Part shown: positions 1 to 9,801 of the stretch, piece by piece
How positions within the stretch are numbered: position 1 is the stretch's first letter
How the letters are laid out: the number at the start of each line of letters is the position of its first letter
Source of the DNA: Candidatus Krumholzibacteriota bacterium
Lineage (GTDB): Bacteria; Krumholzibacteriota; Krumholzibacteriia; LZORAL124-64-63
Length of the DNA stretch: 12,472 bases
NCBI GenBank assembly: GCA_039714075.1
Contig: JBDLKA010000096.1
Span: 1 to 12,472 of the forward strand
Direction: 5' to 3'
Translations under genes and position numbers: made by a program
The notes under the pieces: model-generated
The model's database searches: none
Seen by the model: the letters and a program-made list of their open reading frames with translations, nothing else
Told to the model about the DNA's origin: nothing

Positions 1-165
1 ATTTCCTGGCCAATTACGAACCGGAAAACCACACCGAAAATTCCGATGATTCGGCGATCGGGTTTGCCAGCCTGCATCTGATCTGGCGGCCTTGAGGGGC
101 ATTCAGAGGAATTGTGAAAAACCACGTAACTTGCTGAAAATTATATAGTTATTTAATTTTGCCAC

Positions 166-194
166 TTGTGGATTTCGCTATTTGTTCGTATATT
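166..194 (+). promoter_or_regulatory. Putative sigma70-type promoter of the HNH gene
   Basis: TTGTGG (166-171), 17-nt spacer, TATATT (189-194), in an AT-rich tract upstream of RBS AAGGAGG (221-227). Confidence 0.45.
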
Positions 195-233
195 GGTTTT
201 ACCTCCCATGCGTCATTTTCAAGGAGGAAAATC

Positions 234-1253
234 ATGTCCAGGATTTCTTATGTTCCCGGTCAACCCGCCGCCAAGGTCCACGTTTCTTTGAAGCACTCAT
301 TGGCCGCCATGGATGAGGCCCACAAGTGCGCCGTGCTGTGGTTCGGTGAGATCATGCGGCGCCGTCTTTTTCGTGACCTGGGTCACTCTTCCATTAATCA
401 GTACGCCATTCAGGAACTGGGTTTTTCCAAATCGCGGACCGACCAGTTCATTCGCCTTGCGCGGCAACTGGACAACCTGCCCGCGGTGCGCGATGCGGTG
501 GCTAATGGGGAGCTCGGGTATACCAAGGCGCGGGAAATCGTCTCGGTGGCCACTCCTGAAACGCAGGACGGGTGGCTTGAGGCCGCCAAGGGATCGCGGA
601 AGGAATTGATTCGTGAAGTAAAGAAGGCCAAACGTGCGGCCAAGGTTGATCCGGGTCAGGGTTCGCTGTTGCCTTCCTCGCCGCCGGTGGTGGCGCCGCG
701 AGAACTTCCGGTACGCTTCCAGATGGACCTGACCCCGGAGCAGGAAGCCCGCCGTGCCGCCCTGGTCGAAAGGCTCCACAAGGTTGGAGGCGTGCCGAAT
801 GACCGGGCCGAACTGGTTTTGGAAGCTTTGGCCGCTCTGTTGGAAACAAAAGAGTTAAAAGGCCAAAAGTGTCCCCGGGGACACTTTGCCAGCCGTCCGC
901 CGGTGCAGATCCATGTCCACGAAAATGCGGAAACGGGCCGCATGATGGTCCCGACCGACACGGGAGAACGTGAATTGGGCCGGGCCGAAAGCGAAAGGTT
1001 GCGTTGCGACGCCGCAGTCTGCGAACACGGCGGTCGCAACACAACGACAATTCCGCCAAGGGTGCGCCGCAAGGTGCTGGCCCGGGACAAACACCATTGC
1101 CAGGCGCCGGGTTGTGGACGAACGCGGTTCCTGGAAGTGCACCACATCGTGCCGCGACAACAAGGGGGAACCAACCAGGCGGACAACCTGGTGACGCTCT
1201 GCGGCTCCTGCCATCGGCTGTGGCATGAAAAGGGCGTCCGGCTGACGGCCTGA
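234..1253 (+). CDS. DUF222-like / HNH endonuclease (13E12-repeat-family-like), 339 aa
   Basis: ATG234 follows AAGGAGG (221-227), so it is preferred over TTG159. The C-terminus RRKVLARDKHHCQAPGC...EVHHIVPRQQGGTNQADNLVTLCGSCHRLWH is an intact HNH motif with Cys zinc ligands. It is preceded by RLRCDA...GR..TTIP, typical of DUF222-HNH proteins. The N-terminal region is helical (LARQLDNLPAVRDAVANGELGYTKAREI). Confidence 0.88.
   Translation: MSRISYVPGQPAAKVHVSLKHSLAAMDEAHKCAVLWFGEIMRRRLFRDLGHSSINQYAIQELGFSKSRTDQFIRLARQLDNLPAVRDAVANGELGYTKAREIVSVATPETQDGWLEAAKGSRKELIREVKKAKRAAKVDPGQGSLLPSSPPVVAPRELPVRFQMDLTPEQEARRAALVERLHKVGGVPNDRAELVLEALAALLETKELKGQKCPRGHFASRPPVQIHVHENAETGRMMVPTDTGERELGRAESERLRCDAAVCEHGGRNTTTIPPRVRRKVLARDKHHCQAPGCGRTRFLEVHHIVPRQQGGTNQADNLVTLCGSCHRLWHEKGVRLTA
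866..887. repeat. Perfect 22-bp palindrome inside the HNH CDS
   Basis: AAAGTGTCCCCGGGGACACTTT is its own reverse complement, centred at 876/877. It encodes the KCPRGHF linker. Confidence 0.97.
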
Positions 1254-2158: not shown

Positions 2159-2187
2159 TTTCCCCGGGCCGTCCGAAGTCTTATTAT
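2159..2187 (+). promoter_or_regulatory. Putative proS promoter
   Basis: TTTCCC (2159-2164), 17-nt spacer, TATTAT (2182-2187). Confidence 0.45.
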
Positions 2188-2210
2188 TGCCGGACCTGAT
2201 TCATTCAAAG

Positions 2211-2231
2211 CGGGAGGGTACGCCCCTCCCG
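2211..2231 (+). promoter_or_regulatory. 5' UTR hairpin of proS
   Basis: CGGGAGGG (2211-2218) pairs with CCCTCCCG (2224-2231) around loop TACGC. There is no U-tract after it. Confidence 0.6.
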
Positions 2232-2255
2232 GTCGCGTTAGGGAAAGGGAAAACG

Positions 2256-3734
2256 ATGGCCCAGATCACGAAACGAAGCGACGACTACAGCCGTTGGTAC
2301 CAGGACGTCATCCAGGCCGCCGAACTGGCCGAGAACAGCCCCGTCCGCGGCTGCATGGTGATCCGCCCCAACGGGTACGCCATCTGGGAAAACATCCAGC
2401 GCACCCTGGACGACAAGTTCAAGGAACTGGGCCACGTGAACGCCTACTTCCCGCTGCTGATCCCGAAGAGTTTCCTGGCCAAGGAAGCCGAGCACGTCGA
2501 GGGCTTCGCCAAGGAATGCGCCATCGTCACGCATCACCGTTTGAAGCAGGTGACGGTTGATGGCAAGACAACGGTCATTCCCGATCCCGACAGCAAGCTG
2601 GAGGAGGAGTACGTCATCCGCCCCACCAGCGAGACGGTCATCTGGGACCAGTACCGCAAGTGGATCCAGAGCTACCGCGACCTGCCCATTTTGATCAACC
2701 AGTGGGCCAACGTGATGCGCTGGGAGATGCGCACGCGGATGTTCCTGCGCACCACCGAATTCCTGTGGCAGGAGGGGCACACCGCCCACGCCACCGCCGA
2801 GGAGGGCCGCGAAGAAACCCTGCAGATGCTCGAAGTGTACCGCTGGTTCGCCGAGGACATCCTGGCCATGCCGGTGATCACCGGCGCCAAGACAGCCAAC
2901 GAACGCTTCGCCGGCGCGCAGGAGACCTATTCCATCGAGGCCATGATGCAGGACCGCAAGGCCCTGCAGGCGGCGACCAGTCACGACCTGGGCCAGAACT
3001 TCGCCAAGGCCTTCGACGTGAAATACCAGGATGCCGAGGGCAAGGTCGAGCACGTGTGGGCCACCAGCTGGGGCATGAGCACACGCATCATGGGCGCCTT
3101 GATCATGACCCACAGCGACGACGACGGCCTGATCCTGCCGCCGCGCATCGCCGGCACCAAGGCGGTCATCGTGCCGATCTGGAAAAACGACGAAGAGATG
3201 GCGCAGGTGATCGAAGCCGCCGAGAAAATTGCGGCCGAGCTGCGGCCGGTCGTTGGGCCCATTCATATCGACAAGCGCGACAACATGCGTCCCGGCTGGA
3301 AATATGGCGAGTGGGAGCGCAAGGGTGTGCCCCTGCGGATGGAACTGGGACCTCGCGACCTGGCCGACGAAAAGGTCATGATGGCGGCGCGCCACGACCG
3401 CAACAAGCAACCCGTCCCTTTCACGGAATTGGCATCCGCCGTGCCGGCCGAACTGGAACGCATCCAACAAGACCTTTTCGACCGCGCCCTGAAACGCCGC
3501 GAAGAGGCCACCGTCACCATCGACACGTGGGACGAGTTCACCAAGACCTTCAAGGGCGACGGCGCGTTTGCCTATTGCCACTGGTGCGGCGACGGCGAAT
3601 GCGAGCAGACCATCCAGGACAAGACCAAGGTTACGGTCCGCAACATCCCGTTCGACCGGGACGAGACGAAGGGCGAGTGCGTGCACTGCGGGAAAGAATC
3701 CATCGGGCGGGTGCTGTTCTCGCAGTCGTATTGA
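2256..3734 (+). CDS. proS: Proline--tRNA ligase, archaeal/eukaryote-like (Thermus-type), 492 aa
   Basis: Motifs DYSRWYQDVI, VRGCMVIRPNGY, IRPTSET, NQWANVMRWEMRTRMFLRTTEFLWQEGHT, ALQAATSHDLGQNF and TSWGMSTR. It has an anticodon-binding domain, a C-terminal Zn domain (HWCG...C...CVHCG) and a terminal Tyr, with no INS editing domain. ATG2256 follows GGGAAAGGGA. Confidence 0.98.
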   Translation: MAQITKRSDDYSRWYQDVIQAAELAENSPVRGCMVIRPNGYAIWENIQRTLDDKFKELGHVNAYFPLLIPKSFLAKEAEHVEGFAKECAIVTHHRLKQVTVDGKTTVIPDPDSKLEEEYVIRPTSETVIWDQYRKWIQSYRDLPILINQWANVMRWEMRTRMFLRTTEFLWQEGHTAHATAEEGREETLQMLEVYRWFAEDILAMPVITGAKTANERFAGAQETYSIEAMMQDRKALQAATSHDLGQNFAKAFDVKYQDAEGKVEHVWATSWGMSTRIMGALIMTHSDDDGLILPPRIAGTKAVIVPIWKNDEEMAQVIEAAEKIAAELRPVVGPIHIDKRDNMRPGWKYGEWERKGVPLRMELGPRDLADEKVMMAARHDRNKQPVPFTELASAVPAELERIQQDLFDRALKRREEATVTIDTWDEFTKTFKGDGAFAYCHWCGDGECEQTIQDKTKVTVRNIPFDRDETKGECVHCGKESIGRVLFSQSY

Positions 3735-3766: not shown

Positions 3767-3797
3767 AAAATGAGGGTCCACCGGGGACCCTCATTTT
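3767..3797. terminator. Probable bidirectional intrinsic terminator between convergent proS and LVIVD genes
   Basis: AAAATGAGGGTCC (3767-3779) pairs with GGACCCTCATTTT (3785-3797) around a 5-nt loop, with A/T tracts at both ends. Confidence 0.8.
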
Positions 3798-8967: not shown

Positions 8968-9801
8968 TTGAGAAGTCGAATTTTACCCATTGATGGTACG
9001 AGGGCCGCCCGGGCGGCCCTCGTCGCGTTTCTCCTTTTGGCCGTCGTGACACCCTGCCGCGCCTGGTCGGAATTCGGTGCGGAGGAAAAGGCGGCGGAAC
9101 CCACGGGCCCGGAAATCCGGGAACCCTTCTTCGAATTCCTGCTCGGCATGGCCGAAAGTGATTCCCTGGGGGCCTGGACCGGACAGCAACTGCGGGCTCA
9201 CGCCGCGGCGTTGGGTCGCGAATCCCGGTTTCCCCTGGAAGAAGTCGTCTCCCTCGCGCGCTCCCGCCCCGATTCGATGGGGGAGCGGAAATACATGGGC
9301 ACCAGGGTGCGCGCGGTCTGGACCCTGGTGCTGAAAGGCAGCCAGGACCGTCCCATGCCCTACAGTATTCTCGGATACCATCCGGGCAGCCTGCGGATCG
9401 GCGGAGTGCTGGTCCTCAGTGAACTGGCGCCTTCGGACATCGATGTCGCCTTCATGAAGGACGACGAGCGGATCACGCGCCGGATGACCGAGGTGCGGAT
9501 TTTTCCCCTGGAAAAGGGTTATGTCCTGCTGGATGCGGACGGCTTTCTGGACGCTATCCTGGGGTCGGCCCTGGACGATGCCTGGACCCTGGGTTTCGTC
9601 ATCGGTCGCGAGAAGGGGAAACTGATCGGCCTGGGCGTGTCCCTGGGGCGCGAAGGCCGCCGGATTTACGGGGAATTCGATTTCACGCAGGACAAGGTGA
9701 TGGTCCACGGCCGGCGGCCCATGTCCGCCTTGAGCCGGGCCAGCCGCCGCTGGCTGAATGTCGAAGACGGCAATCTGCCGGAACCCTGGATTGAAAACTG
9801 A
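8968..9801 (+). CDS. Hypothetical exported protein
   Basis: ORF fills the gap 12 nt after the lipoprotein gene, with GC-rich third positions and a hydrophobic N-terminal segment (AALVAFLLLAVVTPCRA). TTG start is uncertain and no family was recognised. Confidence 0.7.
   Translation: MRSRILPIDGTRAARAALVAFLLLAVVTPCRAWSEFGAEEKAAEPTGPEIREPFFEFLLGMAESDSLGAWTGQQLRAHAAALGRESRFPLEEVVSLARSRPDSMGERKYMGTRVRAVWTLVLKGSQDRPMPYSILGYHPGSLRIGGVLVLSELAPSDIDVAFMKDDERITRRMTEVRIFPLEKGYVLLDADGFLDAILGSALDDAWTLGFVIGREKGKLIGLGVSLGREGRRIYGEFDFTQDKVMVHGRRPMSALSRASRRWLNVEDGNLPEPWIEN

Follow-up and report, generated by a model that had tools for sequence, protein, structure and literature searches.

The window analyzed here (the whole stretch of 12,472 nucleotides, contig JBDLKA010000096.1 of assembly GCA_039714075.1, from a Candidatus Krumholzibacteriota bacterium) contains a gene for an HNH nuclease with a perfect palindrome inside its coding sequence. 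Comparison with homologous genes indicates that this palindrome is constrained at the DNA level and that its core is 16 bp long (869 to 884). Copies are scattered through the genome and, across related bacteria, change together with the predicted DNA-reading helix of the nuclease, from which we infer that the protein likely binds the site and may produce the copies itself.

The palindrome and its core

Positions 866 to 887 read AAAGTGTCCCC|GGGGACACTTT, a loopless palindrome with 11-bp arms, and GGC at 861 to 863 pairs with GCC at 888 to 890 past a 2-nt bulge, all as described in an earlier note on this sequence. It lies in frame within the open reading frame (ORF) 234 to 1253, encodes the peptide KCPRGHF, and falls in a linker of low model confidence in the predicted protein (pLDDT 53, block 211 to 220). 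The chance expectation given for it at the time, 0.003 per window, used the wrong null: the window holds a longer palindrome of an unrelated family (8998 to 9023, perfect, 13-bp arms, near the start of ORF 8968 to 9801), and synonymous recoding of the peptide produced an 11-bp arm in 4,638 of 200,000 trials (2.3%). There is also a terminator-like inverted repeat at 3767 to 3797 (13 bp, 5-nt loop), after ORF 2187 to 3734. The palindrome alone is modest; it is the comparative evidence that is decisive for more than chance.

869 to 884, no strand: 16-bp palindromic core, GTGTCCCC|GGGGACAC, likely binding site, from arm co-variation and 24 exact copies in the genome
866 to 887, no strand: 22-bp palindrome as first noted, consisting of the core plus A/T tracts, which are also found on most free copies

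In the 4.06-Mb genome, the centre CCCC|GGGG occurs in 37 of the 45 perfect palindromes with arms of at least 11 bp, and CCCCCCGGGGGG is found 65 times, compared with none for its reverse. The same centre, in identical codon phase, was present in 39 of 43 close homologous linkers, while the peptide varies. Among 21 close genes the codons were CCC in 21, CGG in 20, and GGR in 21, with a synonymous identity elsewhere of ca. 0.5. A count of palindromes in homologs, along the lines proposed in the earlier note, gave arms of at least 7 bp in 67 of 91 full genes, against 16.6 after recoding.

Co-variation was evaluated in 41 distinct homologous 22-mers, and since these were chosen for their centre, positions 1 to 4 are uninformative in this respect. 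Counting outwards, the arms pair at positions 5 to 8 in 41, 34, 33, and 31 of the 41 (expected 33.8, 18.7, 16.8, and 17.1), G-T pairs being rare there, and at positions 9 to 11 in 13, 22, and 14 (expected 13.8, 17.0, and 12.4). Within a site type, the four central pairs do not vary. Given these compensatory changes in homologous linkers, the fixed codons, and the variation of the peptide, the claim that KCPRGHF is dictated by DNA symmetry holds up; the 22-bp palindrome is also there, but the constrained unit is 16 bp, not 22 or 30. By a fixed rule, the site is present in 83 of 101 genes and absent in 18, and other clades have different palindromes, some elsewhere in the gene and encoding other peptides. 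One paralog in the genome containing the window (G000; the other G numbers are the genomes compared), at C31:33125-34162, has CCCGCC|GGCGGG in its place, a variant that also occurs free (C89:5270 and C6:44378).

The nuclease and its scattered sites

The gene and its predicted domains are as follows.

234 to 1253, plus strand: 339-aa gene with a ParB-like DNA-binding domain, a possible ribbon-helix-helix region, the site-bearing linker, and the HNH nuclease
166 to 194, plus strand: likely promoter (TTGTGG and TATATT, 17 bp apart), which is also conserved ahead of the paralogs; under the threshold of the scanner, which found none
297 to 635, plus strand: ParB/Noc/KorB-like DNA-binding domain, residues ca. 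22 to 134, overlapping a weak DUF222 match
429 to 458, plus strand: predicted recognition helix, residues 66 to 75, in which D70 (441 to 443) and Q71 (444 to 446) co-vary with site positions -6 and -5
711 to 875, plus strand: strand-helix-helix region, residues 160 to 214, a weak candidate for a dimerization module
1098 to 1226, plus strand: HNH nuclease domain, with invariant zinc cysteines, H304, N318, and H327

Pfam gave weak matches to DUF222 and HTH_ParB and a clear one to HNH, and four methods point, each weakly, to a ParB/Noc fold for the N-terminal half. The four cysteines and the three other HNH residues are invariant across 70 homologous sequences. Q71 aligns with ParB N178, a parS contact according to the part of the source available (PMC7383237). 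The homologs L125, L128, and L132 of G018 and L124 of G074 are distant and longer, those of G018 apparently with two helix-turn-helix repeats before the HNH.

The helix and the in-gene site vary together, and the proposal of a cis-acting site tied to the nuclease's own gene is supported. Genes with an acidic residue 71 have C at position -5 in 39 of 40 cases, compared with 3 of 35 for Gln71, and residue 70 is the best of 296 columns for position -6; R70 changes four times, and the matching site type changes four times. Metagenome loci added later have a site in 31 of the 41 with a readable helix, with the pairings acidic 71 and C (22/22), Gln71 and T (8/8), Gly70 and C (12/12), and Asp70 and G (4/4). 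A given residue is paired with one and the same base even in clades far apart (TTG for W70, T for Q71), and where a genome has several helix types, their sites differ (TDQ and TGD in G000, three types in G001).

Regarding the scattered copies, the 16-mer of the window (the TDQ site) was found 24 times exactly in G000, once in G014, and not at all in 46 other genomes. A genome search for free-standing copies had been suggested, and 17 of these 24 do lie outside nuclease genes. Using our own gene caller, 7 of the 47 GTGY-type sites of G000 were placed in nuclease genes, 1 in another coding sequence, and 39 outside called genes; control palindromes are ca. 90% coding. The TDD site appears 13 times each in G151 and G153, whose genes are mostly TDD, and the TRD site 17 times in G106 and 22 in G128, which have TRD among their genes, with none in G000. 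Farther away, the 14-mer TTGCGCCGGCGCAA of genus g2 has 75 to 296 copies in all eight g2 genomes, inside, before, and after its nuclease genes, and none in 129 of 151 genomes, while KTACACGTGTAM has 6 to 28 copies in four g7 genomes with the gene and none in their congener G048, in which no copy of the gene was detected. The idea that the palindrome seeds a REP-like family is partly borne out: free copies agree with the resident gene, but of 41 free sites tested a single one is plainly a gene remnant.

Some sites belong to larger units. A 160-bp family resembling miniature inverted-repeat transposable elements (MITEs) ends in 21-bp terminal inverted repeats and carries the site roughly halfway along (G000 C10:57817-57976, C15:25371-25530, C26:1361-1520, C32:33236-33395, and others), with a 9-bp target duplication at one copy and no autonomous partner assembled. 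In an AT-rich cassette (G000 C6:3089, C114:2845, C196:552, C68:1211, and others) the site is flanked by IHF-like motifs and by an imperfect palindrome of short length, and some copies have another site ca. 105 to 140 bp off.

Among 40 free sites of relatives, 17 are syntenic with G000, where 8 have a site and 9 do not. In seven of the 8, at least one arm carries the T of G000; orthology at the level of bases is clear for 3, plausible for 3, and weak for 2. The 47 sites of G000 divide into 24 that are fully T/A, 18 half-converted, and 5 C/G. One of the 8 syntenic sites lies in a variable loop of an unrelated host gene for a methyltransferase (G000 C9:25201-26016), found in 25 of 35 genomes, with the loop site in 9 of these orthologs and none in 16. 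The loop reads KVSPGTL in G000, KGPPGAL in G106, KVPPGAL in G152, and GPPGGL in G151, all encoded by perfect palindromes; at this loop, G008 and G013 carry the palindrome of g2. In these six genomes the variant is the one found in their own nuclease genes, with the amino acids changed, and three further congeners have degenerate forms.

Insertion and movement of the gene

Two further features describe how the gene sits in the window.

95 to 1253, plus strand: insertion, approximate extent; G151, G061, and G106 are empty, and the same gene adjacency is found in G155, G101, and G066
127 to 139, minus strand: IHF-like motif at the 5' end of the insert, one mismatch from the IHF consensus

Judging from its copies and neighbourhoods, the gene is a multi-copy insertion and likely mobile. 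We obtained 30 tblastn matches in G000, at unrelated loci, most of the partial ones ending at contig ends; the paralogs are alike over ca. 100 to 140 bp upstream, and the shared sequence stops at the end of the HNH. Of 151 genomes of the phylum, 71 gave a match; metagenome-assembled genomes of Ca. Krumholzibacteriia are the nearest relatives that carry a name, and homologs amount to 3,674 representatives at E 1e-10. At the locus of the window, G151, G061, and G106 have the upstream stop codon joined directly to the downstream promoter region, with neither a palindrome nor a terminal inverted repeat at the empty locus. Out of 117 loci of relatives, 15 are syntenic with G000, 5 occupied in both and 10 empty in G000, which indicates that the gene comes and goes. 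Eight other empty loci of G000 include two with a site and two with a degenerate site.

An insertion sequence was considered and rejected, since no transposase domain, terminal inverted repeats, or target duplication was found for the insert; the junctions (82 to 94 and 1242 to 1253) share only a degenerate direct repeat of 12 to 13 bp, which is not a rule at other copies. At C50:8056-8148, G000 has a 91-bp remnant with the linker and a near-site, and two relatives hold the whole gene there. The exact IHF-like motif lies upstream of 8 of 18 paralogs and near 13 of 41 free sites, compared with 21 of 960 control spacers. Two gene copies (L030:1-140 and L031:1-53) are broken by the same foreign sequence four bases beyond the site centre, which looks akin to the 3' end of a group II intron but has no match in Rfam.

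Proposed binding and site writing, and related systems

A ParB-like dimer on a duplex site is, in our view, very probably the simplest account of the size, symmetry, and code of the palindrome, and of the options raised in the earlier note a dimer binding site in double-stranded DNA appears to fit best. Two subunits would each read one 8-bp half, as ParB does with parS, and the in-gene copy might serve self-loading or autoregulation. We lean, with less confidence, toward the protein's own activity as what drives the match of the scattered sites, and to a similar degree toward the combined reading in which the core is the duplex binding site of the ParB-like domain and nicking biases repair, near-matches drifting to the protein's own recognition sequence. 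HNH nicking followed by strand-biased or arm-templated repair would convert one arm first and the other next, and MITEs and deleted genes would spread or leave further copies. We favour nick-directed biased repair because a passive process would hardly yield matched non-synonymous changes in a host enzyme. The gene may move by illegitimate recombination started by a nick; this is a guess, with neither inverted repeats nor a site at the empty target. Strict enzymatic writing, in which the protein nicks beside a parS-like palindrome, converts near-matches, and rewrites spacers and host protein loops whenever two helix residues change, is put forward only tentatively. The tree-aware independent-pair test of helix and site was not significant, and G074, G018, G093, and G110 are counter-cases to the match with the resident variant. 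G093:C86:1311-2282 and G094:C96:1311-2282 have identical coordinates and score in genomes of different genera and are possibly one contig binned twice, which would account for G093 lacking matching sites.

Selection for binding is a real rival to site writing. The protein would then bind the site without writing it, the in-gene copy being an autoregulatory operator or roadblock; copies would spread passively in MITEs and remnants, and ordinary selection through host regulation, DNA protection, or biased uptake would keep the match. All the helix-site evidence fits this equally, and the MITE-like family, the 91-bp remnant, and the sites upstream of and just after many genes speak for it. We nevertheless consider it rather unlikely, as it poorly accounts for four matched non-synonymous changes in the host enzyme loop, for another genus's site in that same loop, and for the turnover of dozens of sites between congeners. 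A site acting as a single-stranded hairpin, in the style of RAYT/REP or Ssn/NTS, or as a terminator or attenuator hairpin in RNA seems improbable. The region does fold as RNA (z score of -2.1), the spacers of convergent genes hold more than their share of free sites (14 of 37, compared with 143 of 1,539 spacers), and nuclease-plus-repeat pairs of this type are known, as far as the accessible portion of PMC11893778 goes. However, cruciform and hairpin readings fit worse because there is no loop, co-variation ends at 8 bp, and G-T pairs are almost absent; moreover, the four central pairs, which could not form in a hairpin, show no variation within a type, no terminator was predicted at the site, divergent genes flank 7 of 47 sites, and it is a predicted helix-turn-helix of duplex type that tracks the sequence.

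Less probable still is an independent lineage-specific repeat made by another factor and invading tolerant loops, the helix correlation being shared ancestry. The independent-pair test, the G074 and G018 counter-cases, and the site in a host gene loop would agree with it; it is at odds with helix types of one genome carrying different sites, with the same residue-base pairing in distant clades, and with the site being in nearly all of the nuclease genes and yet just 1 of 47 in another coding sequence of G000. Finally, chance, or a side effect in a GC-rich genome of a Pro-Arg-Gly peptide that the protein needs, has next to no probability left: given the peptide, an 11-bp arm arises in 2.3% of recodings, but the recoded homologs and the codon data refute this explanation, as the symmetry holds across changing peptides with fixed codons and, in other clades, with other peptides and positions.

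Among known systems, ParB-parS, Noc-NBS, and KorB-OB resemble this one in the weakly predicted fold (residues 22 to 134), the spacerless 16-bp palindrome with a C|G centre, and Q71 at the N178 register; parS and NBS are themselves 16 bp, spacerless, and centred on C|G in the available part of PMC7383237. Here co-variation is confined to the 8-bp halves, and the site is cognate by correlation only. In contrast to ParB, the HNH is fused, the gene is multi-copy and likely mobile, and specificity varies at residues 70 and 71 instead of 173, 179, 184, and 201. ParB proper (ParABS) was rejected, with no Pfam match to the N-terminal CTPase domain in the protein and no adjacent parA, and the genome keeps its own parAB and parS elsewhere (C14), where two parS-type 16-mers adjoin parAB (G000 C14:30437 and 30479).

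The HNH genes of DUF222/REP13E12 (the 13E12 repeat) share the C-terminal HNH, the dispersed multi-copy genes, and a weak DUF222 match, but here only the first third of that model is covered (PF02720, ca. 19 to 121 of 306), under the cut-off (22 bits against 24.4; one paralog exceeds it with 27.7). In the portions of PMC10589994 and PMC3592412 at hand, DUF222-HNH genes are described as repeats or as a domain of unknown function only, and our literature search, over partial texts, found neither a cognate site nor a ParB-like domain described for DUF222/REP13E12 genes. The statement in the earlier note that other DUF222-HNH proteins have VSAET or VPAGT linkers encoded by palindromes was not confirmed. 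Ssn-NTS, in which a nuclease is paired with a repeat (PMC11893778, in part), and RAYT-REP also combine a nuclease gene with its own lineage-specific palindromic repeat in tens to hundreds of mostly extragenic copies, but their enzymes are of the GIY-YIG or HUH type and act on single-stranded hairpins, unlike the HNH, helix-turn-helix, and loopless site inside a coding sequence found here. Membership was rejected, as Pfam matched only HNH, DUF222, and HTH_ParB and no HUH (Y1) or GIY-YIG domain, even though lineage-specific palindromic repeats are associated with the nuclease gene. Cyanobacterial HIP1 and alternative HIPs likewise switch palindrome identity with the resident enzyme, and Elhai proposed a repair system creating and maintaining HIP1 sites (PMC4390886, as partly available); those are short and tied to methyltransferases, whereas this one is 16 bp and sits within the gene of the nuclease to which it is tied, which is likely mobile.

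Free-standing HNH homing endonuclease genes are also solitary, with a DNA-binding module, between conserved genes. Here, however, the gene occupies many unrelated loci, and its likely site lies within the gene and not at the empty target, which is the opposite of homing; a homing endonuclease gene was rejected because the empty alleles of the window have no site.

A description of the site was not found in our literature search, and the nuclease-site pair likely represents a functional-looking, undescribed system. It gives a testable function to the large class of multi-copy DUF222-type HNH genes and ties them to lineage-specific palindromic repeats, and the helix-site pairs predict the exact binding site of each protein. 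If site writing is true, it would be a mutational force reshaping host genes, a new engine for bacterial dispersed palindromes and a mechanism for DUF222/13E12 genes, and the family would offer nickases specific for 16 bp as a natural library, their code readable from two residues. If there is no site writing, these proteins would still form a fast-evolving natural series of ParB-type specificities, useful for DNA labelling and nicking tools.
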